A DNA stretch of 53,950 bases, filler included, from Perkinsus olseni (GCA_013115125.1; 3 parts of 3 records of this genome joined end to end with filler, not necessarily neighbours in it), one strand, 5' to 3'; shown: positions 1,064 through 36,909, counted from the whole stretch's first letter. The notes: a model not told the origin generated them from the sequence alone. Numbers and translations: made by a program.

Positions 1064-3388
1064 GGTTGTGGGTGGATTATGCACACAGCCCTCTGCGAGA
1101 AAAGGGCTGGTCGTTTATATTTCTGTGTGCCCGAAAAGACACTTTTTCATCTTTTCGTGTGAAAACGAGAAAATGATTGTTTATCTTTATCTTCGTGTGT
1201 GTGCAAAAGAAGAAAGACTTCTTCTTGACTTATGCTGTTGAATTCTCATTTTTGTGTGTGCAAGACCAGTTAAGTGATGTATCTGTTGTGTCTACGAGAT
1301 GCAGTGGTGTTTGCATTCCAGTATCTAGCGACTGAGCCGCCCTGATTTATAGCCTAGTTGCGGGTCGATTCCGTTCAGGCCTACAGAATGGTAGCACATT
1401 TTTCGGCAAAGTTGATGACTCGAACTTCAAGTCATCAATTCTGTGGGCGACGCGCACGAAGGTGCTCGTGCGTGTGTCCTCCGCACTCTGGGATGGACTT
1501 TGCCGTTGTTTACAGTAGATCTTCGTATCCTCTTTTACTCAAAATCACCCATACCTAGATGTACGCGTGCGGCACGCGGCGTGCCCTATCATCCATCAGC
1601 ACGTGCAATTGCAGATCCACGAGTGTCCAAGTTGGATTCGATAGTTAACGAAGCTGTCATCAGGATACGACTCGTATGCTGATGACAGCTTGAATCCGGG
1701 AAAAGTGGTCAATCTGTTAACTGGAACGAGCTGTAGCTATAACATTCTGGTCTTCACCTTTCTCGGCAGGGAAAAGGAAATGGAACATTTGGAAAACTTA
1801 ATAGCGTGCGTCAAACTGTGTATAGCGTGCAAAGGATGACCTCGCAGAGGTCCGTCGGAGGTGCTAGTCTAACGAAGCCGTACTGTCGGTGTGGGACTTT
1901 GAGCTCAGACACACAAGCCCAAAGGCTGTAAGCTACAGCCTGTAGCGAACTGAAGCTAATTCACGCTCGGCCACTCCATATCGACTGAAAGATCCCAGCC
2001 AGACTCTCAGTCATTACACCCTCGTGTAGCGCTCACTGGTAGCCCACGAAAGCTCGGAGTCTACGAGCCTGACTGTCGGAGGCATGCGACGAGCTAGGTC
2101 TCCTCACGGAAAGGTGCGGCTCTTGGCCTCTGCTCCGAGAGGCCTTGGCAAGGGCCGTACACAGCCAGTGGCAGTCTGCCACAGAGCCACTGTTTATTAC
2201 GCAGTGTGTAAGGTGCGGTTATACAGGATCTACGGGAGGAGAGGTTTAGTTTAACCCGTGAGCAAAAGGATCATCTAACCCGCTTAGATGAGTCTTTCTC
2301 TCGCGAGCGGTGATGAGGTGCACATAAGGCTTCGAAAACCCAGTCACCAACCGCTCAGCGCGTCTTAGCCCATTCGACCCGAATGGTCTAAAAAAAAGAT
2401 TCCGTGTCCAACAGACGGAAATGCTGTCAGTTTTGTGTAACAAATGTACAATAGGGGTTGTTGCCTTCAGTATGTCACCTTCACAGGACCGATCATTGCA
2501 ACACAAAAGTGCATGCCGGTCTTCAGCAAGGCTCTGCAAAAATTGGCCTCGTAATGTTAGCCCGGTTGCACATGATTGAATCATGTGATTCAATAACCTC
2601 GAGTGCGAACAGTCTTCTGGCTCAACCCAATGACTCAATGTGATTCTCGCATGCCACTTGACTGCCTCTCGGAGAGTGAGAGATGTCTGGCCGTCTTTTG
2701 GAGTCCCCGAGAGTCTCGGGCCGAGACAGGTTAGGGAACCTCCGCAAGCCGAATCCAGTTGTCGAGGATCTCAAGTCGGATCCTTGATTCGTGTCGTCTA
2801 GGTGCATACTACTATAATGCTTGGTGCAACGCGAACTCAACCACGAATACAGATGTGTCATTATTTCGTGCTAGAGTCGAACCTGCGCCCTATATCCGCT
2901 TCTCCATGGATGCTAACGAGCTAGACTGAACTCGACAACAAAACACACCGATCTACAGCTTACTGCGGTCTTCATAACCACCACAATGCAAGCCGGATGC
3001 TCCACTGTTGTTCGTTCTAGTGAGATGTCATTGAGCGATGTAACAGTTGTATCTTCAATAGCTGTTAGTCGAGGGTCCACCGCTAGCGTAATCGCAGTAT
3101 GACCGAGTCGTTCTTTCCACAGGCAGTCTCTTGCTTTACCGAGTTTCCAGCGAAACTATGGCAAACACAATACGCTGTTCAACCTTAACACTTCATGGTC
3201 TAAATACGTGCACTCGCATGCAAGGCAACTTTGGAATGAAGCATGCGAGGTACTCTGAACAAGGACAGTGAACAAAGTGACCATCCGGCTGAAGAACGGA
3301 CAGCCAAAATAAGCCGCGCCTGATTACGGCAACGGAAAATGCGCCCGGACATTGCGGTAGTGGCGTGAGAACTTGATGATGGCCTCCG

Positions 3389-6300
3389 TCAGACCGTAAC
3401 GGCGCCCATCGCAAAGGCATTGAATATCCTCTCCAGAGTGGTCTGGGATACCTGAGATCGGCGAGGAGAGAAGGGAAAAGCTCTTGTGCGGCACAGGTTC
3501 CTAATGCGACTCGACTCTTTCAAAAGTCTAAGCCGGGGATCTCCAGGAGCCCGCGGTAACAGTCTAGTGCGGGACTTGTCAAAAAAGGGATATCTATCCG
3601 TCCTCTTGACAAGTGGAGATATATTCCTTGCGGTCCCTTTCCCCACGAACCTGGAAATCGCTGAACTGAAGCTGCTCTTGCGCGTCGAGGAAAATGCCGA
3701 AAATCTCGCCTGAAAAATAACCTTTAAGACTCAAGTGACGGCTGAACCTTAGCTCACCAATCTTCTTCGGGGCATTCTCTTCGCCACCACTACCGCCAAC
3801 CCCCTCCGGCACTATAGCGTACTTCACATTCGTACCTGAGATTAGATCAACTCTGTCTACATCACCAAGGCGTATCATCGAAGCTCACCATGACGCTCGA
3901 GCAGGACGGCAGAGTTGATCCCGGAGGCTGTAAGGAACGCTTCCAGCTTCATCAACTTCTCATCAAGATCGACCCAGGCAATGAGGTCCGAGATAAGAAT
4001 AGCCGTACTAAAACGTGGAGGACCTTGAACACTTGTAATTCCTCAACGCTCACCTCCCCTGCTCGTCAGCTGCCCTGAGTACTGCCCCGGGCAGGCAGCT
4101 TGCTCGGTTCAGACGATCAGGGACCTGCCCAAGCATCGCACAAGCATTCAGTCCAGCCCGCATTCATCCATACTAGGACGGAAGACCACAACTTCTAGGC
4201 TCTTGAGAGCAGCGGCCTCGAATCAACAGTAACGTTCGTGACCTCCAGGCAGGAGTGCCTCCCCTGTGCCATTCCCAAGGTTGAGCTTATGCGCGCACGG
4301 TAGACCGGCACATTGTATTTCACTCAGACATACGGGAAGTGCGAGCGCTGCAACCGCGCCACAGCCTACCTTATCGAGTATCGCCTTGGCATCCTCTAAA
4401 GTAAGGCAGAGCTGAGCCGAGCCCGCACTGGCAGGTCCGATGCCCATAGTATCTGAGTAAAGGTCGCTGCAGCCAACGAATGAGAATTAACAGCGATTTT
4501 TCGTTCAACTGTAGTGACTATGAGGCAAAGATACTTGCAAAAACACCACTCCAACCATCAGCTAGCATTTCCCTGACTCTCCTAGATCTCGACATCGACC
4601 AGTACCACCAATATTAGCAAGATCTCTATGCCTTGTTGTGTGACAAGTTACGCCATTTCACCTCAGTCGGGCAAACATCTGCTATGAATCACCAGCATTT
4701 TGACCATTCCCGCAAGAAAATCCTGGCAAGCGATCGCTATCCGCGGGTTCTACGAGAGATCACGTCGCCCTCCCCCAAACCAATTAGCGACAGAAACAAC
4801 GAGTCGCCTGGCATGAACTTTTCGCTGTACCATTGACTTGGAAACTTGCGAAGACTTGTAGCAGAATGCCAGTCGTGGGCTGAGCTGCACTAGACATTCC
4901 CAGGGTTCGCTCTATTACTAAGTTGGTGTGGGACACTTGGCCGCCGCCGCCGCCGCAAGCGACTCGATTCCCCAGACTCACTTAGCAGCTCCTCAGCCGC
5001 GTGCTCCGTCACAGGGTCGTACCTCAAGCTGACCTCGTAACCCCTGCCGAATCGACTCTTCAGTCGCTGAGGTGACCCAAGACACCTAAATTGCCCATCG
5101 ACCTGACAAGTGGAAGTCCTGTGGCTTGCCCAAATCCCGGAGGCACGCGCATGCCTAGTACAAAGACTGAGAAAAGTAGCGACAGAGCTCACTTGAATGG
5201 CAATCCGGGAGCACAGAGCCTCTGCTTCCTCCATAGAATGCGTGGTCAGTACGACGACACTTCGCCGACTGACAGCCAGCTGCTGTATCACGCCCCAAAG
5301 GAATCTTCGGGACACGGGATCCATGCCGGTGCTCGGTTCATCGAGAAAGACAATACGAGGACGACCGATCTGAGTTAGGATGAGGATGGTAAGCTGATCA
5401 TACAACTTCCATCCTGAACGACCGCGAGGCTTCCCTAACATTAAAGTGGCCGAGTCGGTCACCAAGTTCGGGTACAGTACGAGCAACCTAAAGGTTGCGC
5501 AACAGGCCAGTGAGTTAACTTCTTTAATTTGAGGCCCAAATTATGAAAGAAGTCTCGCAGTATTTCCTCCGGGCGCGCGCTTAAAACTTGATCCATTTTC
5601 ACCAGACTACATTTCGCATGTGCCAGACTGCACAGTATGTTACACTCGAGTCCTCCAAGAGCAACGCAATCGAGGCTAGATCAGGTACGAGGGCGCAAAA
5701 TAGAACATCACGAAACAGTGACTTCAATTAAGATCGGTAGACGAGGCTTACGGTGGCCATTCCGACGGACAGTTTCCTCTTATTGCCACCACTGAGGCTC
5801 CCAGCCCGCTTGTCCTTATATCTGTGATAAAAACGCTGCCCGTGGGATTCGAACCTGTGCCTCCCACGGTTCCAATGAGAGCTGCTTCAAAGTGCTCTCC
5901 ACCGAAGCGTCAAGTAGGTGGCCCTTCAAACCCTTCAGACGGCCATAGAGCTCCAGATGCTCCTTCGTTGTCATTCGATCGAGAAGCGCATCGAACTGGG
6001 GACAGTAACCAAGATTCCTCCGGCACTTGGCCGTCTGAAAAGCAACCAAACCCTGCAGTATGGACAGCCCCATGGGTTATAGATAAGATCTCTCATCTTG
6101 CTGTGCGTTGATTACGCATTAGCCTTTTGTATTAGCTACACACACATAGTGAGACACTTGCCCGTACCATTCCTTTGGCGGTAGTGGTTACAAGACTAGG
6201 GCTTTGTCCACAGAAACCATACCCTCTTACATCAGCGGCAACAGTCGAGCCCGCCACCCAGACCTCGCCCTCTGTTGGCGCATATAGGCCGCACATCATC

Positions 6301-9300
6301 TTGAACCTGACGAATACTATTCAGTATAAGCATGCCTCACACCCTACTGGGATGGCCCAGCGTCCAGCCAGTTCTCGAAAATCTACTTCCACAATTCACT
6401 TTCAAGTAGTTCAGAATTTGGGATTAATTTTAGCACCTCGATCGCGTTAAGGTCGGCACCCGATGGCGAATTAGTATTCCGCCAGCGTCAATTTAGACGT
6501 CCGACCAACAACCACGAGCCAGTGCACGTCCATCACTTACGTCGTAGTCTTGCCTGCACCGTTGATCCCCAACAGTCCGAATACTTGACCAGAATCAGCA
6601 GCGAACGAGACGCCCTTCACTGCATGAACAGCTCTAGAAGGGTCGGCAGTCAGGGAGCCTCGGGGAAGGTAACTGCGCAAAAACTCGCGGTTAGCGCGGG
6701 ATACAAGAGCACCAAAATGCACGAAAGTCGCGAAATGCGTAGACAGTTGTGCTGGGCAAAGCTCCTAGGCGAGAGTAACTGCAGGCGATACTCATAGTCA
6801 ATCTACCGACCAGAACGGTCCCGGCCGCCAAGCAATGCAACCGCAGGCCGGCCGCAATACTTAACAGACTCAACTGTCTTCAGACCGGCAGATTCGATGG
6901 AGGTTCATACGAATCACCTGGTGAAGACAGCCGGTGGCCGACATCGAGAGGTGGGATATTACCGAGCAGAAAAAAAAGAGAAAAATCGGACTAGACTTTG
7001 GAAAAGTCAAAAACTTACCGCACTTACCATTTTCGAACGTTGTCAACGGCCAGAATTTGCTTGCGCTTGTCCAGCCCCGCGACTCTCTCTTTCTCTACCG
7101 TAACATCCGCATCTTCTGGCGCCAACTGGTCCTCAGGAATTGAACTGGAACGAGCAGGAACATCTCAGGTCCATTGAGGAAGAGCGAGATTGCAAGATGT
7201 TCATCAGACCACACCGCGTGAAATAAGAGCCTGATTCCAGCTGGTCTACGCTTACCACTGCCTTTCCAGTTTGACTTTATACGACAGCCAGTGGCCTGCG
7301 GTACCCAAATAATCAAACCAAATACAGAGTGCGAGGAATGCAACGCTGGCGAATGCGAGGTAGACCAGGTCGTCGGCTACTCCCCCATAGCACAGCTCTC
7401 GAGTGCCCAACACCTTTTCAGTGCATGTACCTAGAGCGAACCTGGACTTGCATGCAATGAACGCCTTAATGACGCCTTCCGTATCGCATGCAGAGGACAG
7501 GGTAATCTTCTAAATATTAACGATAATCGTCTTGAATATGACAGCTGGGTTTACGATCGTTTACGCTGGTACAGACGAACTGGAACTTACCGAAAATTTC
7601 CGAGCCCCAAGGATCCACGCCCAAGAAGGAGACGTAGATGGCCATCCGGTAGAAACCGAACCCGAGGGCGAATGACGGAACGAAGCGGAAGATCCACATG
7701 AGAATATTTCCAGCAACCTGAACAGAAGCTTTTCGCGAATAATCGAGATGCTGTGTCGTATAGCGTCCCGGTTCCTCGTATCAGAGACCTTTCCTGATAT
7801 ACGTTTGAGGTTTAGAGTCGGGTTGCGTTAGTTTGCCAGAACTGATGACACATTGTAGCGAATCTCTACGCTTAATTTGCCCATTTTCAGTAAGCCACTA
7901 TTTTCAAAGGAGGCGAACCCTACCACGGTCGACAATTATCGAGGAAGATAATCGTGTAGCGAAGAGTCCACATCTGAGTCGTCTCCCAGTTTGGGGCGGT
8001 TCTCTCTCACCAGGCAGTCTTCGCAGAATTCCTCGGGTATAGTCTGCAGCACCGATACGACTATGACGACGATCGTCCCGACGGCGATGTTCAGCACGAT
8101 GGTAACCGTCTGGGCCGAAAACTGCGTCTTGTACAGGAAGGAGATCAGATAGGCGTACCTGAACGAGCCATCGAGAGGTCCCGGGTTCGAATCCCGCTGG
8201 CAGCTTCTTACGTTGAGGCCGATGGGGCGAACAACAGCAGTAACATGATGGTTGGACCGATCTTATCAGACTCCGTAAATGCCTCCATATCAAAGGCATA
8301 GAGAACTGCTATTGCGACCGCTACGGTGAGGAGGTTGAATACCGTATCGAAGATGAAGTGGGCCAGCCAGTACGCGGTCATGGAGCACCTGAGAGAATCT
8401 CATTTCAGCCCCTGCACGCGAATAAAGTTCATTCTTGCAAGCTGGGATGGATGACGGAATTATCGTCTATATGCTTCCGTATTGACCAGTAGCCATGAGC
8501 TGTTCATGTGCGTTGTTCGTATAGTCTATTGCCATACCACACCACATTAGACAGTGTTCAGAATATCACACGAGCACAGTTGCCCCGCGTATTCCTATGC
8601 TATGAACAGCTGGATACTGCCATTGTGTCGTCGCGGAAGGATCCCAAGACGCGCCCTAGCCTACCCAGAGATTGCCAACTGTGCTTTCACGTCCTTCTCC
8701 TTCTCCATCACAATGTAACTGCATATACCAGCCGGAATGAAGGCGAAGGCCCAAATAACGGCCTGAGACGCGACACAAATGTTGTGACCAAATCGCTAAA
8801 AAATTCGAACTCAGAGGGTATATCCTGCGCAGATTATGAGCATATTCACTGGAGTCTCGTGGGAGAATAATATCGCGGAAAGACGAGAGGTTGGGAGAAA
8901 CCGATCTTCTGAGTACAGACCCCCATAAGATCCAATGATATCTCGTGATATCGTATAACCTTCGAAATATCGGAATGGTCGACGCTGGCCGGCTTGGCAG
9001 GTATCAAATACTCGGAATATGTCGAGATGTCGTTGACGATTTTAGAGCACTATACGCTGTACCAAGAATTTATGGCTCCGTGACTATACCATTAGGCTCT
9101 TCGGGCAATTCTGCTGCATTTTTTCGTACTGCAAATGAGCTGCAGAATAGAGAGTCCACCGCGCCACGAAAATAACGAGCAATAGCGAGGCTTACTATTG
9201 TGGAGAGTATGCCAGATACCACCACTGAGATGTTCTGCTCAAACAGAGTCTGAGGCAACGGGTGATTCACGACGGTAACCTGAGACAAGAAAATACTGCA

Positions 9301-12300
9301 CACTCAATTGCTCAATCTATACAATGACGAATGACGGGGACGACGCTCGCTCGACTTGACGTTGTTAAGGCAATGCTATTCGCTTTAAAATTTATTCAAG
9401 CAACCCGTGGGATTCGAACCCGCGACCTCCTCACCCTGACGTCCGTTCCGTGAGCAGCAAACCATGCGTTGACATACGTGTTCAACGCGATAGCCGAAGA
9501 CGCGGTTGCCGTGAGATTGTGCCAAAGCACCACTCGACTAGCTGGGTCGTCCGCCTCCCTTTGGAGCTCAGTAGCGTTATTTAGGTGCGAGAAAGCGATG
9601 TAGGATGACGCCTAACAAAACGACGAGGCATTGACATGACTAGCTGCCACAGAGCGGGCCGCGGCTCGAACTACCCGAACTACAGTATAACTACACTGTG
9701 CAAATTTTCTCAAAGTACTCTCCTGGTGACAGGACGTCTGTCGGAATCGAGAAGTGTATTCACAACACTTCCACGACGCTCATCCGAGGCCCATCAGAGA
9801 TCGGTAGCGAGAAGAGCGATCACTAGTCCAGCGTTATTGAAACGGGGAGGATGAGATAAGACTCCCCCATCATAGAGATATAAGCAGCAGTTAACAGTCT
9901 AACATGAAACGAGAGGCGCCAATACGCCGGAGGGCATTCTCGAAGGACACCCTCCACTACGGCAGCACGATGAATCAGCCTTATCGTTTCTGCTCCGCCT
10001 CACCTCATAGTCTTCCCGAGACTCTCGTAAGTGGGACTGCATAGCCAGCAGATCACTGCTCTGATTGGGTGGAGTCGCCACTGTCCGAAGCGTGTCGCAG
10101 TGATCGTCGGCATTGGCGCACAGAGGTGACCAGAAAGGACCTGCGAGCAGGCTCCTTGCAACCGGTCATTCCCTAGCGCAGCACACCGTCCGAGTCTCCG
10201 AGCCCCAGAATACTACCAACGTCCGTGTCGCCTCCCGCATGGGTGATATGCCAGGGACGAGGCGAGCCAGCTTTCTGAAGCGGCTCGTTAAGATCGGCGA
10301 TGCTTATCGCCAACGGTGGAGCCACCTGATGTGAGGGGCAAGCTTATAAGTTTTCATGTTTACAGATGCTCTCAAGAGCCGTCCTGCTCCACTTTGAGTG
10401 ACGACAATTCCGTGGAGAGTTCGATACTCGGACTGCCAGCGATTCATGGAAGATGCGTAAAATAGGAGACGAGTATTCATATTGTTTCTATTTAGCTTAC
10501 TCTTTCACTCGCTCCCTGCTTGACTAAAGCCAGGGCGCCCGCCAAGAGGATCAGTGGCAGAAGAAGCTGGCATATGAACATCTTCCTATCACGCAGGCCG
10601 AAGCGTATCCTGAGTACATGGATCATGAATGCACGTGCGAAGTCGGGACGATATGACCTTCTCTGAATCAAGGCCATCGTTTGCTCTCTTGTTGTCGCTG
10701 GTTCGATTATGGGCTCGTCCTTCTCCCCGATATGCACAACCGTCTCCGGTATCCTCGCGTCTTGGTCATCAGCCTGGTTAGCTGAATCATTATCGACCGA
10801 GTCCAGGGGAACTACGGCTCTGAGAGATGGATTCCTGAGGGACTCTAAATTGATAAATAAATTGCCAGAAGCTGAGGTGCATAAATTCCGATGCCGGAAC
10901 TCGAACCCGGGTCGTCTGGGTGAAAGCCAGATATCCTAACCAGCTAGACTACATCGGACGATGCCCGTGAAATTCTAGATCAGAGCCAAACACTCTCCGG
11001 TAATTCGTTACCCTGAACCGGCTGTAGCCCCCTCCGATCGTTCCTCTGCACCTGGATCTGCAACCCGTAGAAAGACTTCTTCCAGGTTAGTCACCGACAC
11101 GCCGTAGGCCACCAACTGAATGGAAAACACACTTCGCTGAAGCTGCACTGAAGCTCAGGAGATTCAGCGACTCCGGTTCGGCAGAGAGGCAAGCTGCACG
11201 AAAATATGCATGCCGCGAAAGAGTCTCGAAGACCTCGCGGCAAACTGCAGGACTGAGCAACATCAATAGTTTGCTAGCCGGAAGCCTCGCTTCAGTCGAT
11301 CCCCAATGAGCGACCCCCCGTTCAACAATTCTGAAATTCAGAATCGATACCGAAATTGATCTTCACACGTAAAATGCGGTTCAAGCATCGATTCGGAGCT
11401 CAAAATTGGGTCGTTGAACGACATCTCAGTCACACCCTAGCTCACCAGCCCCTTCAAGGTGTCGCTCTTGCCAGCAATCTCGGCGTCAAGATCGTCCATG
11501 AGAGCCGGGAAGTCCTTAGCAGCCGCAAATGGCACTTGCACCAGCAGCTCCTGTCCCGCAGATGAGAGAACCTTAACCTGAGGGGGTCCATTGCGATTCG
11601 GGCTCCACTTCCGCACTTGCACGATGGCGAAGCAGACTTTAGCGAGAATTGCGAGAATGGAGTCCTGTGGATCATGAGCACGCAATCAAAGCTACCCTCA
11701 GATTTCGATCTCGTCGAATTCATAAGAATCCGGAGCTGGCAAAGCGCCAGTGGCGCTTTTGGTGGCACCAACCGTACGGCATAAGATCGCACCGCCCCAC
11801 CTGTCCGATGAGGCTCTTATCGGTGATGCGGTCCTTGAGGAACTCGAGCACCGTAGCATCGCCGCGATCTACGTCCTGCTTTTTCACAAAACTCAGGACA
11901 TATCCGCATCCGTAACACTTCTTCAAAAAACTGGATGAGCCCAGGCACTTGAGCTCTCCCCGACCCATTATAGCTATCCTGTCTCCTAGCACATCAGCCT
12001 CGTCCATGTAGTGAGTGGTGAGGCAAATGATCCGCCCTGGACGCCGTGCCTTCAGGAGATCCCAGGTGGTTCGACGGGCGTAAGGATCCATGCCAGAAGT
12101 GGGTTCGTCGAGGATAACCAGTTTCGGGTCCCCGACGAAGGCGATTGCCACCGAAAGTTTCCTCTGCATGCCGCCACTGAGGCTGTCGGATCGGAACTCC
12201 TTCCTCCCGCCGAGACCAACTTCCAGCAGAAGGTGATCGCAAGATTCTCTGAACGTCTTCGAGCTTCGATTGAGACCCCGAATGCCTCCGAAACACTCGA

Positions 12301-14536
12301 GGTGTTCGAAAGCGGTGAGCTCGGGCCACAGGGCGTTATGCTGGAGACAGACACCGGTGATGCGCCTAATCGCTGCCATGTCCTTCGGCACTCTCAGCCC
12401 ATACACGCTCACCTTGCCCGACGAGGGAGCGAGGAAGCCAGTGATGGCGCCCATGGTAGTTGTCTTGCCGGCGCCGTTGTGCCCGAGGAGAGCAAAGATC
12501 TCTCCCTCATACATGGACATGCTCACGCCTTTCACAGCTGCTACAGTCTCTCCAGAAGGGCCTTTGAAGTTCTTGCAGAGCTTGAAGATCTCAACACACT
12601 TGCCAGCCTTCCTCAAAGCCTCCTTAGAAGCATCCACGGCCTCCCTGGGAACGGCGTTGCCCTCGCCACCATCGGAGTCTTCTTTCTCTTCATCGAGAAA
12701 ATCGGCGTCTCGGTCATCCCGAAAGCACTCGAGCCAGTAGGACTTTTGAAAGGGAAAATAATAGGGTCTACGGAACCCGACCTGGAATGGGTTCGTTTGA
12801 TCCACATAGTAGTACAGAATCCACCAGAGAAGGCTCGCCACAAAATTCATTGCCACTGCCTGAGCATAGGAATAGTTACGATAATCGACAGATGTGGTAT
12901 CAGAGGTCAGCCCGCCATAAGTCTCCTCCAGGTAGCCGACGACACCGAGGCCTTCGCGGAAGCCCACGATAGGTATCAAGGACATAAAGTTCTTAGTGGA
13001 CGCTGCGGCGTAGTCGGGCACCGAGATGAAGAGACCGGCTAGGTAGACGAAGAAGCCGATCACGGCTCCTACTCTCTCCCTCGTGAAGATGGCCGACATG
13101 AGGAAAGCGAAGGACATACTCGAGAGACCGAAGGATATGTTGAGCATGAAGATGAGGAACCAGGAGGAATGCTTGTACGTACCACCTCTCATAACCAGCG
13201 AAATCGCGAGGCAAATGATGAGCCACGTTAAGATTTGCGTGATGAGCCAGGATAGGTAGTAAGATACGTCCATAAGGCCCATCATTCTCATTATCTCACG
13301 GAGCCTCATCTCCTTCTCTCTGATCAGGCGGGAGATCTGAACGCTAACAGACGCTGAGAAGGCGAACACCACCAGCCAGGTAAGGTCGCTGATCAGGTCA
13401 ATGCCGTCAGACGACCAGTAGGGTTCCACCGGAAAAGGAACAGACCAAGTTTGCTTGAAAATTGTCTTCTCTTCGCTACTGATGTCGGCGCCAGGGACGT
13501 CCATAGTTCTCCTCGCCACCTCAGTCACAGCCTCGTGCCGTGACGCTATAAAGCGTTGAACGAACAACTGTATCGCTAGAAAGCCATTGCGAATGTAAAA
13601 GTGTCGAGCCGAGTCCTCATCGACGTGTCGTTCGATCCCCCTAGGATCGTCCTCCAGTGAAGTCCGTGTTATCCAACGACTAATACGACCGATCGTAGCG
13701 TTGAGGCGTATCTTGAACTCGGGGTTACCATCCCGAAGGATATCATTCTCAAGAACGACGGCACCGCACAGCCTATCCCAGGCTGCCGGATCGGACCCAC
13801 GCTCCTCGCCAGAAGTAGTTTCAATGGAGGACCCGTAGTCCTCGTCCTCGATGTAGTCCTTCAACGAATCCTCATCGTCGAACACCCTGAAGAGAGTTCT
13901 GGTGTTCCACGATCCGCACTGGGCCCAGTTCGTGAGGAATATCTCTCGAGCATCGCTGTCACCATATCCACCCTGAACGAAGCCTGGTTCGTAACGGTCG
14001 CCAAGATCCCAATGATAGGTGAAGTTGTGACCGGTGGCGTTCACGACTTCCTCCTCGAGTCTTTGGTATTCTCGCTCGAAGTATCCCTTCAACCCATTGG
14101 CAAGCTCTTCCCTTCTGACACCCTTCGCCACAATCGCCAGAGTCTTGCACCAGCACGACTGACCCGAGTCGGCCATCGGCTGCCGCCTGAAAATTCCCCA
14201 GCGCCTAGTGTCGTCCAGGAAGTCGACGTCGAAGGCCTGCGCCCGAGGGTAGCCGTCCTGGCTGACCGGATCGGACTCGACGACCATTCTCCGCTCGAAG
14301 TCCAGACCGAGCAGGCCAGGAAGTTGAAAGATGAGCCAGGAGAGTATAATGGGCAAGAGTATCTCGCAACAGCTGCACTTCCAACTTCGTATCTTGAGAA
14401 TTGCGTTCTTCCTGAGTAAAGCTCCAACCTGACGATGGACCATCCTCTTGGGGGCTTCCGATTGGGCCCCGGCCATTTCTATCAGCTCAGACGGTCTTGC
14501 CTCGCTGGCAGGCCGTAGCGCAGTTCCGTCTTCCAT
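3389..14536 (-). CDS. Full-length ABC transporter subfamily A (TMD-NBD-TMD-NBD), multi-exon
   Basis: Exon 1 (~14536-11778) has ALLRKN, [15 protein letters not shown], [30 protein letters not shown] and TTHYMDEAD. Later exons carry the second NBD ([10 protein letters not shown] ~6540, GYCPQFDAL ~6000, [10 protein letters not shown] ~5780, [10 protein letters not shown] ~5330, TTHSMEEAE). The last exon is [20 protein letters not shown] at 3389. Confidence 0.93.
10886..10958 (-). tRNA. tRNA-Glu(TTC), inside an ABCA intron
   Basis: TCCGATGTAGTCTAGCTGGTTAGGATATCTGGCTTTCACCCAGACGACCCGGGTTCGAGTTCCGGCATCGGAA. It has a perfect 7-bp acceptor stem, an anticodon arm TCTGG/CCAGA with loop CTTTCAC, and a T-loop TTCGAGT (G53-T61 wobble). 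Confidence 0.92.
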
Positions 14537-15340: not shown

Positions 15341-15597
15341 TTTTCCTAAGGAGAATGTTATTTTCCTAAGGAAGAAATCTCGCTCGCCCTTTACATTTTT
15401 CTAAGGAGACTTTGCGCTTTTCTAAGGAGTCTTTGCACTTTTCTAAGGAGTCTTTGCACTTTTCTAAGGAGACTTTGTACTTCTCTAAGGAGACTTTGTA
15501 CTTTTCTAAGGAGACTTTGCACTTTTCTAAGGAGACTTTGTACTTCTCTAAGGAGACTTTGCACTTTTCTAAGGAGCCCTTGCGTTTTCCTGAGGAC
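15341..15597. repeat. 21-bp tandem minisatellite (~9 good copies plus degenerate flanks)
   Basis: Unit TTTTCTAAGGAGACTTTGCAC with point variants. It reads as the heptad EKCKVSL on the minus strand and FSKETLH on the plus strand. Confidence 0.9.
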
Positions 15598-15722: not shown

Positions 15723-16376
15723 GCCTAGCAATCGACGGTTTTTTTTGTTGGAACCTGTTCTACGGCTTTGCCTTGTGGAACTGCCAAGCCTTGTGTTTCT
15801 GCCTTGTGGTACTGCCACGGCTCGGCAGACAGCCTTCACTCAAGATCTCGCTTCTCGCTCAGGTCGGGATTTTCCCTTGGAGTGTAATTTTCCCGCCGCT
15901 GATTCTTGCGTGCTCCGATAAGAAGCTACGCTGAGGCTGATATACGTGCCGACTGATCAGGAGATAGCAGCTGAGAGATCTAATTCCGGATGGCTAAACC
16001 CAAGTCTTGTGTTGTCAATAAGCTAGTCTATCCATACTGATGATGTGGGTTCGCTGTTCTGCTGCTATCTTTGTAGAGGTCAACTAACTTACGACAACAC
16101 AACCTTACTCAAACTTGAAATGGGCTCGTTGCATCCTCCGATAAGGAGGTTGCCTGAGTCTACAGTAGTTGAGTAGGCTTATGCCTTCTCTCCTCCCTAT
16201 TGGTTAATAAATCATGGTAAATTACTTGTCACAGGCTAAGCCTGAGACGCTTCTTCGTCTCATTCATTCATGGCTTCACGAAATCCTTCCATCTGGATGG
16301 CGGGAGCCTGTATTAACGGCAGGTGTTCCGCTCCCTTGAGGGTTGTCAGACATTGACTGAACCCAACAGTTCAGAA

Positions 16377-16398
16377 CTTGAGCCAAGATGGCTACGGA
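16377..16398 (-). other. Genome-encoded spliced leader (Perkinsus/DinoSL type)
   Basis: The minus strand reads TCCGTAGCCATCTTGGCTCAAG. This matches the known Perkinsus SL ACCGTAGCCATCTTGGCTCAAG at 21/22 and fits the D at position 1 of DinoSL (DCCGTAGCCATTTTGGCTCAAG). It is followed by TTC, not a splice donor, and an ATG lies 23 nt downstream. Confidence 0.9.
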
Positions 16399-16446
16399 CT
16401 GACTTATACCAATCTCATCAATACTGATCGCACAACAACCAACCAG

Positions 16447-17941
16447 TGTTACCATAGCTAAAAGGGTGCACGCATGCACACTGAGATTGGGAGATAGACA
16501 CAATAAGACATTCCTCTAACACGCCCCCCTGCCGAGCATACATTGCTCGGCACTATGCACCGTCGCTGGAACGACATTAACATGAGACTCCTCGCTGCAG
16601 GTGCCAGATAGAAATCGCACCTTGTAGCGTCTCGCAAATCCATCACGAGAAGGACTGACGACATCGACAATATGACCAACACGAACTCCAACGTCAAGTT
16701 TGTTACGTTGGGCAACTCGGACTAGGACTGTTGTACCCTGAGCAAGTGGAGGAGTATCAACACCTCGCTTTTTGCCCATGGCCTTGGAGCATCGGTCACG
16801 CAGTAATTGCCAATGATGCTGAAGAAAAGTTTGACGGATACATTTAAGAGCACGGGGGCGGTCAATATGGACATTAGCTACAGAATCGGACTCAACCATA
16901 GGTAGAAGAATACCGGTTGAGCGAGTATATCCTAGAGCTAACCGATCTGCAGTAATGACATCATGATCGTCAGAACCCGTTGAATGAATACACATAGGGA
17001 TACTATTCATCAAAAGGGATACATGATCATAAACTCTATTCAAATCCTGATCTGACGATCTAGCAAGCTGTTGGGGAGTATAATTAAGCCTCAAAATACG
17101 CAAACCAACAGCATGCGAACGTTCAACAGGAGTCTCCCACGGCGCTCTAGCGGCGTGGTACCTAAGCTCAACTCCCTCCTCACGAAGGGTGTCAGCAAAT
17201 TCGGAAGATGTAAATGCAGAGCCCCGATCCAGGTAAGCTACCCGAATCTTCCCCCAACGGGACATCAAATTCTTCACACCTTCAACTGCTGCCGCTGCAC
17301 ACTCCTCAGAATGTGAAGAGCGAAACCACGACACGTGGGATGTAGCAATACACCTCGCCGCGAACACTAGCTCGCCAGGAAAGAGGTGTAAGAAATCAAG
17401 GCATACCACCGAGTAGGGGTTACCCGTCCTCAATAGTTCATCAATGTCCCAGTGACTGCCAGCTAAAGGTGCATTCCACTTGAGAGAGGTCATGCGCAAG
17501 CGCAGCTTAGCGCACGGAAGACAACGCCGACAGACGTCTTTGGCACTAGTGGAAGCCCCAATAACATGAATATCCTCTTGCATCGCCGTGACAGTTGGCG
17601 TAGCTCCGCCATGGCCCGCTCGGGCATGAGCGTCCAGGGCCAAGAGGAACCTGAATCTTTTCGCAGTTCTGGGAATGCAAGGGCGACGGAAGGTACTGCC
17701 GGTGATCGTACCTGACCGGAAGTACCAAAGGTCAGTGGACTCGTCGTAGACGAAAGCTCGGCCTTTCTTAGTGAAGTCGTCCAGACGCTGACACAATCTA
17801 ACGACGGTGAGAACGTCGTTGATCTCATAACCTGAGCTCTGTAGCCCGATAGGCAGCCGGGCAGGCATCAAGAGCTGTGGCTGAGCGAGATCATCATCAC
17901 GAGCACGTCGTTGTGCCGTTTGGCGGAAAGGGTAGCGCTTC
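16447..17941 (-). mobile_element. Ty3/Gypsy-like LTR retrotransposon, 3' part (pol/integrase, PPT, start of 3' LTR), truncated by an assembly gap
   Basis: The integrase ORF ends in a polypurine tract GGCAGGGGGG. This is followed by CG and then TGTTAG, the LTR start at 16521. The far end of the LTR is not resolved. Confidence 0.8.
16516..17941 (-). CDS. Retrotransposon integrase (C-terminal part of pol)
   Basis: HHCC zinc finger (AHARAGH...CRRCLPC) and DDE core (LDFLHL, YLDRGSAFTS, PVERSH). The ORF is intronless and the frame stays open into the gap at 17942. Confidence 0.88.
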
Positions 17942-18041
17942 NNNNNNNNNNNNNNNNNNNNNNNNNNNNNNNNNNNNNNNNNNNNTTAATTAATTAANNN
18001 NNNNNNNNNNNNNNNNNNNNNNNNNNNNNNNNNNNNNNNNN

Positions 18042-18672: not shown

Positions 18673-21600
18673 ATGAACGAGTACGATTTCATCTACACGA
18701 AGCTTCGCAAGGAATTTGGAAAGTGGGTTGGCGGAGCGAAGCGATTCATGTTTTGCATTTTTTGTTGCTTGGCTCAGGTATTGCGCTTTTGGCGATACTG
18801 ACCCGAAGGTGCTGGCAACGATAGAGGCAAAACCGGAGTCCATGGAACAGTACAGGTGAGATCTTGCAATCTTGTACAATCTTGTACTTCCTCCACGGAG
18901 TATCTGTTGTCATGCGTGCAAGATACGAATTAGGTTGACATTTTCAGATATAAGAATCCTTGCACGCTGACCTTCGATAACACCCCGATGATGTCCGAGC
19001 ACTCAGTCAATACTGATACCGTAAAAACCGGAAATAAGGGGCAGGTGAGCGGTGATCATAATTTCGTGGCGCGTGACGATTTTTCGATAACCGTAAGAAT
19101 CTCCGAAATGGAGAATCTCACGAGGTTGCCCTTCGCGGCTATTCTCACTCTCGTTCCGGTCGCGAATCTGAGGTTGACTCTTGCCGAATACGGAATGTAA
19201 GATATTTCCTCTGTGACCGTAGGGAGAGACTCGAACCCTCGCTCAACGTCCCTGAGGATAGTGTCGTATCTTTCATCCGCCTATGTTGCACTGGCAAGTA
19301 AAAAATCCCGTTTTTTTTCGTCTACTGATTTGCTCAACATAAAAATATCCTACCTAATTTCGCAGTGATCAGAGCCTCTACTGTGAGGGTATCTTCGGAT
19401 CGCGACGCCACACTATACGGACGGAAAAAAGATATGGGAAAATAAGGAAAAATTTGGGGTTTTCCTGGAAGCCTTGTACTCACTTTGGCAAGGTTCATGT
19501 GGAAGGTGGATGGCCGAAGGAAGTCGACTACAGTGAAGCCCAAGATACCGCAAAGTGAGTTGCTCACGCGCGCTCCAGAACAGCTCGACCTCATCCGACC
19601 TCAGGTGGAGGAAAAGACTCGATAAAGATCCCCAGTTCGGGGCTGCGGTGAAGTCTCTGTGTGGCGAAGTGGAGCATTATATTTCTCAGAATTGTGAGTG
19701 GCAATCTCGCTCGCCCGAAATTGTTCATTCGAGAAAGCAGGTGTGAACTCATTCTCTATGCACTTTCTGTTTTTCACTTTCTTAACGAAATTTTCAGTAT
19801 TTTTTCTTTGTTCGAATTTGCGATTTTTCCCGTTCGCTTTCGCATTGGATTTGTGTGAAATGACAATCTGCTCGCTTGGTGTTAGCGTACTGAAGTAGGG
19901 GAGGTCGTCGAGAAAATTTTATCGAAAAAATTTTCCCGAGTTTTACGTTTTTTTGGGAAATTTTCCGTCTCAGGTACGGTGGATCTTTTCGAGGATTATT
20001 TTTCTGGAGAGGAGGTTCAATATCAAATGGAAACGATGTCAGCGAATACGGTAGCGGTGTTTAGAGATCAAAGTGAGCGGAGCGAAGCGGCAAATCGATC
20101 ACCCGATCGATTTTGGGTGGTGCTCAGATGAAGAGGAGTACGGTAGATCAGTGTCGAGAATATCTTGGCATCCCGAGGGAGGTCACAAATTCGTGGCGAG
20201 CTACTCCGTGAGGAAATGCTTTTAAATGTGTCCATACCAACTTTTTTGCAACTCATAGGTCATGCAGTTCCAAAAGCTCGAAGACTCACTGCCGAAGTCT
20301 TCCTTCATCTGGGACGTAAGTTGATCGATTTCGACCTCAGAAAGTATCTTTCCCCGCCAGGTGGAAAACCCCAACCTGCCTGTCGGCGAGCTGCTCCCAC
20401 CAGCGCCCCTCATCTGCACTCAGGTGAGGCAATTTCGTGTCGCGCGAAATTTTCTCACTTCTCTTTTAGAGTATCATCGCAATACTTCCTTTGAATCAAA
20501 ATTCTGGTACAACCGAGTGGGACTGAGCGCGAATAGTATTTATTCAAACAAGTGCGGAAAAAAATTTTCCCGGAATAGTTTTCCGGTGGCGAACGCGCAC
20601 TTGCAAGATAACAGGATATGACGGACGTGATCTTTTTTTATCAGTTTGTATTGTCTCAATTCGATTGCGAACAACTGCCCTCTTTTCTCTCGTGGATTTT
20701 TTTCATTTTCGATCAGAACAAATCTAGATTTTATGTAGCGTTGTTTTCGGGGAGTACTCGGCAGCTTGAAGTTTACTCTCGAAATTTTTTCTCGAAAATT
20801 TCACTAATTTATGGTTTTTTGCCCAACATTTTAACGGCTGTTGCTGTCTTTGCAGTACCAAACCCGGAATCCCGACACGCTGGCCGGCGGAGCTTACAAT
20901 GGCCTGGTTTTCTTCTTCGATGTTCGACAGGTGAGTTGGACAGCAGGTTGTTTGCGTGTGGATTTGGTAACCCTGCGGAGTTCTGAGTTCAATAAGGTGG
21001 AGTTGCGAATTCATTAATTTAGCGCGCGCCCATGCGATCGATTCGGGTTGTATAATTATTTGCTCACGTTGGTGAGAAAGATATTTTATCGATCGTTTCG
21101 TCGCAATTTTCTTCGGGCGGCCGGAGGGCCTTATAGTGCGTTGATAGAGGTTGGAGGAGATAGGAATCTTAGGTTGACCCTGGGAAGATATGAAATTGGA
21201 TGATAGTGCTTGATATAGTCGAGAAAGCGGGGCGAGAAACTTCCTTGAAAATAGAGCAGCTCCAATTGAATCCATTTCAGGGGTCCAAGCCAGTTGGGAA
21301 GTCGTCGTTCGAGCAGTCGCATCACGACCCGGTCTACGACTTCGTTTGGCTGCAGTCGAAAACCAACAGTAAATCCGGCCCAGTCGTTAGCGTTCAATCT
21401 TTTCATGTGGAAGGTGGTTAGTTCGACCCATTTACTTGTCGTTTTTCAGGCGAGTGTGCCACTACTTCGACTGACGGCAGAGTTCTTTGGTGGGACACGC
21501 GTAATTTATCCGAACCGACCGATGAGGTTGTCTTAACCGACGGGAACCGGGAGAACCCGAAGCAGCTCGGTAGGTGGGAGGAGACCGCACTTGCCCTTCT

Positions 21601-29705: not shown

Positions 29706-31984
29706 CTATCGCCTATCACGACGAGGACGCTTAGCAGGAGGCGAAGCTTTCTGGCCGGCTGGAGCGGCCTCCACCGGCTTCGGCGTCAACAGCGTGCATT
29801 TACCTGAGACGATTAAGATCCCGAAAACGATGACAACCGACTAATACTCACTTTGAGGGCGACCCTCAAGAATATCAGAGAACTGAACCATGAATAGATG
29901 GTTATCTCGATCGTGGAAGTGAGAAATTCCGCGGTCCCAGACATCCACCAGGCCCACAGAGAACTCCTCGTTAACGACCTGATGCCAGTAGCCCGGGGGT
30001 ATCACAATCATCTGAGAACGGGCGAGCCTCATGATCAACAGATAGCGGCTATGCTCACATCTCCTGGCATCATCGTGCTCAGGCTGAAAGAAGTCGGTAA
30101 ACCTTTCATTGACTTCCAATTCGCGAAGTGCCTGAGGAGAATTTGAGGGGGCTGCAATGACGAAGCCGCCCGAGAGGGATTACGCTGTATCCAGAACCAT
30201 GTCCTGCCCATTAGTGAGAGGTATTTCCCGCTTGGCAGAGCCAGTCTGAGCCTTGTCTGAATACATGATGATAGGCATCATCGGGACCCCCGTTCTCAGT
30301 TGCGCAAAATCGCATCGGCTGTGTGGTCTAGTGGTATGATTCGCGCTTCGGGTGCGCGAGGTCCCGGGTTCGATTCTCGGCTCAGCCCATTTTATGCATT
30401 TCCAACCTACTGATGAAGACTTCCATCCTCCCCCTATCATCATCACTGAAGGCTATGACGGACTTCCTTCCCTCGATACAATACCTGCCAGCCGACTCGC
30501 GACACCCTGGAACTCTCTTCGCAAACTCGGTTGCCTACAGCGTGGCAAAGCCGTTGTCCTCCCGATCGATGTGAATAACCGAGTAGCTGCCAGGCTCGCC
30601 GACCAGCAGGCTCGGCCCCTGCCCCCTCTCATGCAATGGACACATTTCGAAAGGGTAGATCTTGTCCACCACTTCCACCTGAAGTGGTCACAAGGTTTCA
30701 CTAATCGGGCGCCAGCAGGTACTACTGTGTCACGCTGATACGCGCATTGCCCATAGGCCACCCACTTCCTCGGAGGTCCTATGCCCATGACCTGATACAC
30801 CTGGCAGTGGCCCTAGAATAATTCACACACAGCAGCCCACCTCGCTAACTTTCCCCTGCATGACTTTTTTTCCACCACCGCCCCCGAGTTCCACGTAACT
30901 ACCCATCCACCCGTACTACCGTCTAATCAAGATCGTTACGACTCACCCCGGCATCTCCCTTTCCAGCACTTCTTCTAGTTTAAGAATCTACCAGCAATCT
31001 CGCTGTCCCCTATTCAACGCCCACCAGACCGTCGTGCATTACCACTGAGCCCGCATGGCCTGCTTTGCTCGCGACAGTCGATACAGATTCTGATGAGCCT
31101 GACTCCGCCTGCGCCCGCAGGGTATCTAGGACAGATTCCGATCCAAGCTTACACAGTTGGAGAGCTTCCAACCTATGGGGATAAGCTTTGAGTATCGCAA
31201 CGTGAGATCATCTAGCATGCTTCGGTTGTATTCCTTCGGTACGGGTTCATGCATCACGACCAGCTCGTTTAACTGACCACCATGGCTGCAGACGGGAAGG
31301 GAACCCTGCGCCTCTCGCTCACATCTGGGATACACCGGAAGAGGCAGCAAATGTCGTACATCGACCGCCGCTTGCCATTTGGCCGCAGCGTCAGGAGATC
31401 CTGAAGGCCCAGCGCAGCAGCGTAGCCGGCAAGCGTGACTGATATGTTTCTACCTGCACATTCACGCGGGGCAGCAGGGTGCATTTCTCCACGAACACCC
31501 CCTCCGGAATCGTTTCCCGAGGGTCCTCATCATCCCATCTTATCTACCAACGACCCGGGTTCGATCCCTTGTAACGTCCACCAAATATTACCCTGTATGT
31601 TTTCGACTTCGGTCGCCAGGAGCAGATCGTACCGGTGTAGTATCTTACACCCATTCTGTGCTGTTGGGACGGACGACACTCCCCCGGCTTCATATTTTAC
31701 GCGGTAGGAAACGAGCAAGAGCGAAAACATGACGTTTATTGCTAGATAGTAAATTTCGGACGAGTCCATGTAGGCTTACTGCTGTCCAGCATCATCGAAT
31801 ACCATCTCGAACCTCCTCCCGATGATCTCCTCACGGCTACCCCCTTGACCGACAGCTGACGATGACGACGAGTCTGAGACACTTGCAAGATGTTTGCTCG
31901 GTTAATGACTTATCACCGACCCTTCCTCTTGTCGCCTAGCGCGAACTCCTTGAGGGCGGGCTGATCCGCCGCGGCCGTATACAT
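29706..31984 (-). CDS. JmjC-domain (cupin 2OG/Fe(II) oxygenase) protein, multi-exon
   Basis: Exons carry VIHIDREDNG (HxD), CIEGRKSVIAF and IVIPPGYWHQVVN (distal His). The C-terminus is basic and NLS-like (PAKRPRRDRR*). The start MYTAAADQP at 31984 is inferred. Confidence 0.75.
30317..30388 (+). tRNA. tRNA-Pro(CGG), antisense within a JmjC-gene intron
   Basis: GGCTGTGTGGTCTAGTGGTATGATTCGCGCTTCGGGTGCGCGAGGTCCCGGGTTCGATTCTCGGCTCAGCCC forms a typical Pro cloverleaf with loop TTCGGGT, followed by ATTTT. Confidence 0.93.
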
Positions 31985-32887
31985 GCGTAGCAGACAATGA
32001 CGCAGGGACGAGCCGATTTACTTACTACCACAACTCAACAAAAACGGGCACAAGAAGACGCAATGACGTTAAAGACGATAGTAAGGCACTCAAGCAGGAG
32101 TACCGCACTCTCCCCTCCTCCTCCACGGTCGACTACACCCAAGCGGAGGGCCTCGCGATAGCTCACTCTGATGGCAGACGAACACGAAATGACGGGGTAA
32201 CTGCTGTTGTGAGATGGATGGAATATAGGTGCGAGATGGCGTCTGCGGGAGTACTGGAACGAAGGCAGTCGAGAGAGTGTCCTCGGAGTAACGTCCTACA
32301 CGGGTGCTCCTGACGGTGAGGAACGACTCCGTTACCCCCTCCTCTACCGGGCTGAAGGTCATTGGCACAAACGCAGAGGCCGGGCTGGTAATACAACAGA
32401 ACTACTCAGGTAGGCGGTGTGGCCGGGCGAGGGGCGTTACTCGCAGCCACTCCGATTACCCTAGAGGCAATTCCCTTGCAGCGCCCACCGTCATATCGCC
32501 CGAATCCCGATACCGCCCTTCCTGTACGCAGGCACAAGAGGGGACTCTAAGCTAAGCAGCGTTAACCGAGAGACATCTGAGCTGGCTCGCCGGTCATACG
32601 ATGATACCGAGTTGTCGATGCCGGGAATCGAACCCCGGACCTTCCGCACCACCCTTCACCCCACCACGCCCCGAGGACAGTCCATCACACCTCTGAGCTA
32701 AGGTTAGTTTATCACCTCCACACAACACATGCCTCTCTCCTTCCTTCCTCCGACTTGCCTGCAAAACCAAAGGGCCATATCCGAGCTTTGGAGGGAGTCA
32801 ACCGTTTACACTAACGCTGAGTTAGTTGGCTCCGTGAAGTGCTGGAGGTAGGTTATTGATGAGGGGGTTGCCATCGCGTCCACTGAG

Positions 32888-35780: not shown

Positions 35781-36220
35781 ACTACATTCCCTCTGCGCCG
35801 CAACCCCACTTGACCACCCGCACCACGGTGAAGTCGCCAGGCTGCAAAATGCTCGCAAAGCGAGTGGAAAAACCGTATGACGTTATGGGGACCCGACGAG
35901 AGTTGGCCCGTACCTCACTATCAACAGGGACTCCTCCGTGGCTGGTGTAGCNNNNNNNNNNNNNNNNNNNNNNNNNNNNNNNNNNNNNNNNNNNNTTAAT
36001 TAATTAANNNNNNNNNNNNNNNNNNNNNNNNNNNNNNNNNNNNNNNNNNNNAGGAGCACGGGGCATCCGAGCCAAAGCAAGTGCTGGGCGTCTTCCAGTA
36101 TTTACAATATGACCCGGGATAAGTGGCAGCACAGTCGGCGTCGCACTCAGTGGTAGAACCCATCACGTATGTGATGCCTTGGAGGACACTGATAGCAAAG
36201 GAGAGGGCGAGGAGCGACAT
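35781..36220 (-). CDS. Small secreted Cys-rich protein spanning an assembly gap
   Basis: Signal peptide MSLLALSFAISVLQG followed by CDADCAATYPGSYCKYWKTPSTCFGSDAPC. Exon-like pieces on the other side of the gap (...PGDFTVVRVVKWGCGAEGM*) may or may not belong to the same gene. Confidence 0.55.
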
Positions 36221-36832
36221 TCGAAGAAGATGAGAGATTCTGCCGGAAATAAGCAGTCAATAAAGTGCAGCATTGACCCGTATGGCTGTCGGGCATCCCG
36301 CAACGTTCGATTTAATTGACCGACCACATCAATCACTTTACGACCGGCGGATACTCACCACGCCCGAGCGTTTCACAAGATGCTCTCTGTAGTGCGGTGG
36401 CGAGGCGGGCCATCCCAACGCTCCGTCGAACGAGCAACGTCGGACGATCATCGCTCTGGCGTGTTTGAAACCAAACGCAGGGTTCCCCGCTGGGCGGGGC
36501 CAGCCGTCGCTGACCAGTGGTTCACTAGTCAGACCGCTGGGTTTACTCTCCCACACCGTTGGGGCCGTGGCCCGTGAATCAAGAGGTTCCAGGAGCCTGG
36601 TTTCCCTGTCTTATCTCAATGCACGTGAGCCGATTCACGTCATCGTCCTCGCGTCAGCTGCGTGCACTGTAGAACAGATGCTCACGCCTTTGAGAAGATG
36701 GCTTGGGCTGCCCAGGTTGGGCCCGTCCCATCGTCCTTCAATCACATGAGCGAAGGGGTTTTGCGAGATGTTTCCGTCCTGATGTTCCTCTGAGCGCCTT
36801 ATTCGCGAAGTAATTTCAGTACTCGCCGTTTA

Positions 36833-36909
36833 CCAATAGCTCACTCATTTGCTGTTATCTCAGATAACAGCAAATGAGTGAGCTATTGGGGAACAGATAA
36901 CTTATCTGT
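36833..36909. repeat. 28-bp perfect palindrome followed by an 8-bp palindrome, both with a single central C
   Basis: CCAATAGCTCACTCATTTGCTGTTATCT-C-AGATAACAGCAAATGAGTGAGCTATTGG (36833-36889) and ACAGATAA-C-TTATCTGT (36893-36909). Confidence 0.95.

Follow-up and report, generated by a model that had tools for sequence, protein, structure and literature searches.

How does the 3' part of a tRNA gene come to lie inside a short spliceosomal intron, and is it still of any use there? The question is raised by a single stretch of Perkinsus olseni DNA, 53,950 nt long (the window), in which a gene for an ABCA transporter carries three such pieces, each in an intron of its own. The pieces are probably 5'-truncated, dead copies of one tRNA family, in a genus rich in tRNA genes, that are removed from the transcript by ordinary splicing; we give this reading a rough probability of 0.58.

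The three pieces lie at 5834-5859 on the minus strand (fragment 1), at 8172-8204 on the plus strand (fragment 2), and at 9400-9430 on the minus strand (fragment 3), within 1 to 2 nt of where an initial annotation of this DNA had placed them. Each has an exact GGTTCGAATCC box in its T-arm followed by a 3' acceptor strand, and in terms of tRNA anatomy the pieces run from the variable loop, which reads AGGTC in fragments 2 and 3, through the T-arm and the 3' acceptor strand to the discriminator. Fragment 1 reads CACAGGTTCGAATCCCACGGGCAGCG at 5834-5859 and continues as TTTTT at 5829-5833, so that the whole feature occupies 5829-5859; its parts are a T-arm in which two of the five stem positions pair, the acceptor strand GGGCAGC, a discriminator G, and the run of T, and it is the only one of the three in which such a run directly follows the discriminator. 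Fragment 2, CGAGAGGTCCCGGGTTCGAATCCCGCTGGCAGC, is antisense to ABCA and is made up of the variable loop, a T-arm with four of five stem pairs, and the acceptor strand TGGCAGC. Fragment 3 is part of a feature at 9400-9434, of which 9400-9430 reads GGAGGTCGCGGGTTCGAATCCCACGGGTTGC, and its start lies at a splice donor or no more than 6 nt from it; it has the same variable loop, again four of five T-stem pairs, and the acceptor strand GGGTTGC. As the initial annotation had it, fragments 1 and 3 have the 17-mer GGTTCGAATCCCACGGG exactly in common.

That these are pieces of tRNA genes is supported by both pattern counts and profile searches. Within the window, 5 matches to the B-box pattern GGTTCGANTCC were counted and 0.17 are expected; none of 100 shuffled sequences reached this number. 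A search with nhmmer, for which the profile was built from tRNA 3' parts with the fragments themselves included, gave E values of 7.4e-4, 5.3e-6, and 3.3e-5 for fragments 1, 2, and 3, respectively. The pieces thus look as tRNA relics do, with significant partial similarity to tRNA genes, no coding capacity, and T-stems that keep 2 to 4 of 5 pairs. Outside the B-box, the three match one another at 12 to 15 of 20 positions, while other pairs of sites in the window mostly match at 5 to 12 of 20, with a top value of 14 for the intact tRNA-Glu described below and the fragment at 32624. This similarity suggests that fragments 1 to 3 descend from one class-I tRNA parent family. Predicted RNA folding of the three intron pieces was unremarkable, with z-scores of -1.3, -0.3, and -0.4.

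None of the three is a whole tRNA gene. ARAGORN at default settings found tRNAs in the window only at 10886-10958 and 30317-30388 and none at the fragments, and Rfam models run on the whole window agreed on these two genes, a tRNA-Glu and a tRNA-Pro; the claim that only the 3' part of a tRNA is present at the three sites therefore stands. With the laxest filters, Rfam returned no match for fragment 1 alone and only local T-arm matches for fragments 2 and 3 alone. No A-box or D-arm was found upstream of any of the three, and a complete cloverleaf, as expected of a functional tRNA gene, is present at none of them; because they lack the 5' half and the cloverleaf, the fragments cannot give rise to a tRNA. 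Across the window the A-box pattern is not enriched (9 occurrences against 5.5 expected), and apart from the one in the tRNA-Pro gene these matches are not clearly tRNA 5' halves. Complements to the acceptor strand upstream of fragment 3, where 6 of 7 positions pair by eye, were considered as a remnant of the missing half and set aside, being within the estimated chance level. The introns of 46 and 53 nt that hold fragments 1 and 2 have no room for a 5' half, and fragment 3 is bordered by a conserved exon; therefore, all three are truncated copies.

The host gene was delimited by homology and by RNA. An open frame of this region matches ABCA transporters, with the best match in P. olseni itself. 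That protein (P0001, 1,728 amino acids) can be placed on the minus strand between 14536 and roughly 3392; many of its exons are 100% identical, and the last one ends at 3392. This fit assigns the window to P. olseni or to a near-identical source. Threading this protein through the minus strand yielded 22 GT-AG model introns, covering residues up to 1600; their summed lengths come to 5,370 of 10,084 nt, so that about half of the ABCA span is intron. RNA contigs were taken from the one public run that covers the region (X1), whose RNA label is itself a guess, yet the contigs carry GT-AG joints. Among the joints listed, 10 fall within ABCA with CT..AC borders on the plus strand, and 9 of these 10 equal the protein-guided model.

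All three fragments lie in such introns. Model intron 19 (5822-5867, minus strand) is 46 nt long, runs from GTGGGAGG to ATCACAG, and holds fragment 1; 31 of its 46 nt are T-arm, acceptor strand, and TTTTT, after which only ATCACAG remains. Model intron 12 (8159-8211, minus strand) is 53 nt long, runs from GTAAGAAG to GTTCAG, and holds fragment 2 in antisense orientation, which makes up 33 of the 53 nt. In these two introns of minimal size, the relic thus accounts for about two-thirds of the length. Model intron 9 (9280-9434, minus strand) is 155 nt long, begins GTGAGGAGGTCGCGGGTTCGAATCCCACGGGTTGC, and holds fragment 3; in the RNA contigs the start of this intron reads GTGAGGAGGTCGCGGGTTCG, and fragment 3 follows directly after GTGAG, just as had been proposed. 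Removal of the intron between GT and AG with the frame kept is supported by RNA joints and the protein-guided model at 8159-8211 (joint 8155->8209, CT..AC after a shift of +3) and at 9280-9434 (joint 9277->9433, CT..AC after a shift of +2) and by protein homology at 5822-5867. The intronic location given in the initial annotation is therefore borne out by RNA for fragments 2 and 3, which the X1 contigs splice out rather than retain as exon, and by protein homology alone for fragment 1.

For fragment 1, the annotation had further suggested that the GT of GTTCGA, within the tRNA part itself, could serve as the donor of a 40-nt intron ending at TATAAG. The reading frame is kept by both this and the 46-nt model, and the protein sequence tells them apart. 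Four predicted Perkinsus proteins (three from P. olseni and one from P. chesapeaki) have the same conserved segment, LSLEPYKDKRAG, across the junction, and this segment requires the 46-nt intron at 5822-5867, with donor GTGGGA and end CACAG. The spacing from the Q-loop (CPQ) to the signature (SGG) is 55 in the 46-nt model, as it is in 107 of 116 ABCA homologues, and 57 in the 40-nt model, a value found in 0 of 116. The donor within the T-arm is thus contradicted by the protein sequence and by the spacing.

The three fragments are part of a dense scatter of tRNA genes and relics. The nhmmer profile of 3' parts identified nine sites in the 53,950 bases, with nothing more below an E value of 0.1, and these comprise two intact tRNAs, two degenerate full-length copies, and five fragments that consist of 3' parts only; together they form a graded series of relics. 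That five of five partial copies are 3' parts should be read with the caveat that the half with the B-box is easier to detect. The intact tRNA-Glu(TTC) (10886-10958, minus strand; ARAGORN, and 61.9 bits in Rfam) lies on the ABCA strand in model intron 4 (10820-11011, 192 nt), the borders of which agree with an RNA joint at 10819->11012. The intact tRNA-Pro(CGG) (30317-30388, plus strand; ARAGORN and Rfam) is antisense to a JmjC gene, in a minus-strand intron of about 154 nt (30257-30410) that is inferred from BLASTP, from a break at 30400/30266 in the tblastn alignment of protein P0121, and from GT and AG in the sequence, a basis in homology and not in RNA. Both intact genes are therefore intronic, one sense and one antisense, with flanks of only 22 to 66 nt on each side. 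The degenerate full-length copies are a tRNA-Gly(GCC)-like sequence at 46648-46720 (plus strand), followed by TTTTT, located between two divergent open frames and called by ARAGORN only at 90% thresholds, and a sequence at 2861-2945 (minus strand), downstream of the ABCA stop, in which D-arm and T-arm are recognisable and which ARAGORN calls at 80% thresholds. The two remaining 3'-part fragments, both on the minus strand, are at 32615-32642, found by nhmmer and by its B-box and with an acceptor strand that resembles that of tRNA-Glu, and at 19218-19244, found by nhmmer and with five of five T-stem pairs. For these two (around 32624 and 19227), a protein search gave no match, nor did Pfam for the neighbouring reading frame.

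On this evidence, the pieces in ABCA would be 3'-part copies of tRNA genes, with variable loop, T-arm, exact B-box, and acceptor strand, one of them with the T-run of polymerase III (Pol III) genes, that sit in spliceosomal introns as part of a wider scatter of tRNA genes and relics in non-coding DNA, much of it intronic. They are presumed dead and would leave with the intron by ordinary GT-AG splicing. Because about half of the gene is intron, the finding that four of four T-arm sites in ABCA are intronic needs no targeting beyond selection against insertions in exons. Two routes of origin may be considered. The copies may have arrived already truncated, as 5'-truncated retro-copies or as repair filler from a tRNA locus, or each may be what one large deletion left of an intron with a complete tRNA gene in it, comparable to the 192-nt intron of tRNA-Glu, which lies 1.4 kb upstream. 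The initial annotation had listed decayed intronic tRNAs among its explanations, and the part of it that speaks of dead relics is supported by the intronic location of the intact genes and by the two degenerate copies; gradual decay is not, since the 5' halves are absent outright and not worn by point mutation.

Several points weigh against truncated, dead copies as the explanation. No parent tRNA was identified for fragments 1 to 3, and the analysis covers one window of 54 kb. No RNA joint over 5822-5867 is among the joints listed (15 of 20), which speaks neither for nor against that intron. The exactness of the three boxes, when 3 of 5 stem pairs of fragment 1 are lost and there is no tail of more decayed copies, could reflect selection on the box, and it could instead come from young age together with ascertainment by the box. 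Finally, two minimal introns that are mostly relic and a relic at the first bases of a third intron are a poor fit to random lodging in older introns and fit the creation of introns by the tRNA pieces at least as well.

The last point leads to the alternative that survives best, namely that coding sequence took up part of a tRNA locus, beginning near tRNA position 38 and extending past the 3' end into the flank on that side, and that this insert turned into a new spliceosomal intron. It could have come in, among other ways, as filler when a double-strand break was repaired or as the retro-copy of a pre-tRNA, and it would have been survivable through a GT donor at the start and a T-rich tract and AG at the end. 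Intron gain of this kind is possible, though not probable. It would explain why tRNA pieces fill 31 of 46 nt of intron 19 and 33 of 53 nt of intron 12, and why tRNA similarity in intron 9 begins within its first 6 nt; extrapolated to the exon border, the tRNA numbering would give position 38 for the first base of that intron. The T-run after the discriminator of fragment 1 is a feature of the gene or pre-tRNA and not of a mature tRNA, and a single gene has, in the space of 3.6 kb, three pieces that apparently belong to the same tRNA family; both observations favour the capture reading. The intron borders, however, do not tell of insertion. No target-site duplication was seen at the three introns, where boundary repeats or microhomology of 0 to 3 nt are like those of the other 19 model introns, so that the marks of an introner, target-site duplications or terminal repeats at the intron ends, are absent. 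Fragment 2 is antisense, so that the intron around it owes its splice signals at either end to bases outside the tRNA part. The intact tRNA genes sit in ordinary-looking introns with their flanks of 22 to 66 nt, which shows that tRNA genes can occupy introns here without gain being needed. The start GTG(A)GGAGG, common to the introns of fragments 1 and 3, was dropped as evidence of homology because introns 2 and 8 begin likewise (GTGGGGCGG and GTGAGGCGG) without a tRNA piece; GTG[A/G]GG opens 4 of the 22 model introns, which may be only a preference at the donor site.

A more sweeping form of the idea is that in Perkinsus pieces of tRNA loci that begin in the anticodon loop (at about position 38, a site of pre-tRNA cutting or of reverse-transcription stalling) are repeatedly captured in coding exons and seed minimal introns by way of a GT start and a T-run/AG end; this we regard as rather doubtful. 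As for the proposal of the initial annotation that a tiny tRNA-derived mobile unit generates or colonises introns, the window gives no sign of such a defined element: BLAST of the window against itself found no repeat that includes the flanks of any fragment, similarity being limited to the tRNA part, and target-site duplications are missing as described. A short interspersed element (SINE) with a head of A- and B-boxes is not seen either, in that no A-box or D-arm precedes the fragments and the A-box pattern is not enriched.

The dead-copy reading must also be set against the view that the box, and not the tRNA, is what has been kept. Extra-TFIIIC (ETC) sites occur in yeasts and mammals and are defined by TFIIIC occupancy together with conservation of the box. 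Here, an isolated consensus B-box without a Pol III gene, exact to GGTTCGAATCC, is present at all three sites, and the GGTTCGANTCC element might have been retained by selection after the tRNA died, as an extra TFIIIC site in ABCA that acts on chromatin or on the passage of Pol II. We consider this unlikely. The boxes are exact to the 11-nt consensus in 3 of 3 cases while neighbouring T-stem bases of fragment 1 have changed, they lie in both orientations, and the window has no clear excess of degenerate boxes (21 with up to 2 mismatches against 15.5 expected) that would form a tail of more decayed copies. It was, however, by searching for the box that the fragments were found, and this ascertainment alone would lead one to expect perfect boxes. 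The acceptor strands and one terminator, for which TFIIIC binding has no need, are kept as well as the box is, which suggests youth rather than selection. The likeness to ETC sites thus lies in the isolated consensus box without a transcribable Pol III gene; the difference is that the fragments also keep tRNA sequence that TFIIIC does not need.

It is very improbable that a split tRNA-like structure brackets an exon of ABCA and influences the splicing or circularisation of that exon. When introns are allowed (option -i), ARAGORN reports c[5834,6068] as a 'tRNA-Leu(CAG)' in which the 3' end of model intron 18 (6032-6068, minus strand) serves as the 5' half to fragment 1; the supposed 'intron' of 145 nt takes up most of the coding exon that separates the two. 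In this fold the acceptor stem pairs at 7 of 7 positions and the anticodon stem at 5 of 5, and the end of the putative 5' half coincides with the AG of intron 18. When the upstream 3 kb were shuffled, calls that ended in the fragment were obtained in only 2 of 300 and 6 of 300 cases. Against this, the D-arm and T-stem are poor, and by eye, against the consensus, there is no class-II tRNA-Leu D-loop or A-box. The hit was picked post hoc after three fragments had been tested, the shuffles keep single-base composition only, and in the real sequence no equivalent call was obtained for fragments 2 and 3. The exon, moreover, is conserved coding sequence and older than such an arrangement. The tRNA-Leu call is probably a chance match.

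Chance resemblance of GC-rich intron sequence to a T-arm, in favour of which only the short length of the elements can be cited, is next to impossible given 5 boxes against 0.17 expected with 0 of 100 shuffles reaching that count, nhmmer E values of 5e-6 to 7e-4, and boxes flanked by pairing T-stem bases, by the AGGTC loop in fragments 2 and 3, and by a 7-nt acceptor-like strand.

Several other features of the ABCA gene were observed. Its first 2 kb of coding sequence (12527-14536; residues 1 to 670 of P0001, 100% identity) form a single unbroken exon, and the remainder (3392-12526) has at least 21 introns, several of only 46 to 53 nt. At 10141-10216, an X1 contig removes 76 nt and the P0001 model 46 nt (10141-10186), either by use of an alternative acceptor or through a model error. 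At 7431-7590, a contig (record 3, contiguous over 7256-7715) runs across model intron 14; therefore, X1 also contains molecules that are unspliced or retain introns. P0001 implies an 'intron 1' of 651 nt (11876-12526), which encodes the first nucleotide-binding domain; one RNA contig (record 4, 11613-12479) spans most of it unbroken, with another (record 5) resuming at 12459. The public ABCA gene model probably skips real coding sequence at 11876-12526. One RNA contig links 11115 back to 8665 on this minus-strand gene, going back 2,451 nt, and each of the two positions falls on a splice site of the model (8665 on the donor side of intron 11, 11115 on the acceptor side of intron 3); the join looks like a back-splice (a circular RNA of exons 4 to 11), a tandem exon duplication in another allele, or an assembly cycle. 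A depth bin at 8387-8985, which extends over intron 11, a single exon, and a portion of intron 10, reaches 2,707, compared with about 4 to 7 in adjoining bins; Rfam gave no match on 8380-9200, and the bin could reflect an intron-hosted small RNA or a repeat. A metagenome scan with P0001 returned one locus (L001), at 26% identity.

Beyond the gene, a tandem repeat at 15397-15576 has a 63-nt period and copies about 94% identical, and open frames across it read repeated SLEKCKV or FSKETLH units. The summed contig depth over 16174-17941 is about 4e5, compared with 5 to 10 over ABCA. An open frame of 489 codons at 16516-17985 on the minus strand has weak matches to an integrase zinc finger and to the rve core, both below Pfam cut-offs. 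It probably belongs to a retroelement that is either multicopy or strongly expressed. Runs of N at 17942-18041 adjoin the high-depth stretch. At 36828-36894, a near-perfect 57-nt palindrome has sub-threshold matches to microRNA-precursor families on both strands, and it lies about 800 nt from runs of N at 35952-36051.

Comparison with known systems places the ABCA fragments closest to ordinary tRNA pseudogenes and relics. With these they share a B-box, T-arm, and acceptor strand without a cloverleaf, a place in introns and intergenic DNA near intact tRNA genes, and the graded series in the window. Less usual is that five of five partial copies are 3' parts, that one gene contains three which apparently belong to a single family, and that two fill most of an intron of 46 to 53 nt. 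Most likely they are tRNA-gene relics, ordinary in kind but unusually placed. tRNA-derived SINEs are likewise dispersed tRNA-related copies with a Pol III B-box, often intronic and often 5'-truncated, but they keep the 5' head with A- and B-boxes and add an unrelated body or tail, whereas here the A-box half is missing, the acceptor strand is a true one, and no body or tail is shared within the window. In mammals, tailless tRNA retropseudogenes arise from mature tRNA and have CCA. Like these, the fragments are truncated copies that stop where the tRNA itself stops at its 3' end; they differ in that CCA follows the discriminator in none of the three and that fragment 1 carries the T-run of the gene.

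Among introns of foreign origin, introner elements have reportedly been described in Amoebophrya, and introns derived from repair filler and from organelle DNA are cases of intron gain. Like such introns, those studied here are short, and the body of the intron is recognisable foreign DNA. Introners, however, come as many near-identical copies with defined ends and with repeats or duplications, and the window shows no shared non-tRNA sequence and no duplication. Judged from titles and the beginnings of abstracts, we found no description in the literature of introns made of tRNA fragments in Perkinsus.

A known source of broken tRNA genes exists in the same genus. In the study by Kojima and Jurka (2013, PMC3706591), Dada DNA transposons are described as targeting tRNA genes in Perkinsus marinus, a species reported to have more than 500 copies of just five tRNA types. 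Dada elements break tRNA genes into pieces, and the high tRNA copy number documented in that paper makes relics likely (PMC3706591). Dada, however, inserts at the A-box, with TAGCTC as the duplicated target, and leaves 3' pieces that begin at about position 8 to 14 beside an element of 4.7 to 11 kb (PMC3706591), whereas the fragments described here begin at about position 38 to 44. Because Dada breaks tRNA genes at the A-box, it is a poor fit to pieces that start near position 38 to 44 and lie in introns of 46 to 155 nt, where its footprint is not seen.

If the three pieces are plain relics, they mainly document the density of tRNA genes and their debris in Perkinsus introns and also correct a detail of the gene model. 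If the three introns should prove young in comparison with sister species, they would show directly, as is rarely possible, what DNA newly gained spliceosomal introns come from, and they would link the unusual proliferation of tRNA genes in Perkinsus to the evolution of its introns.

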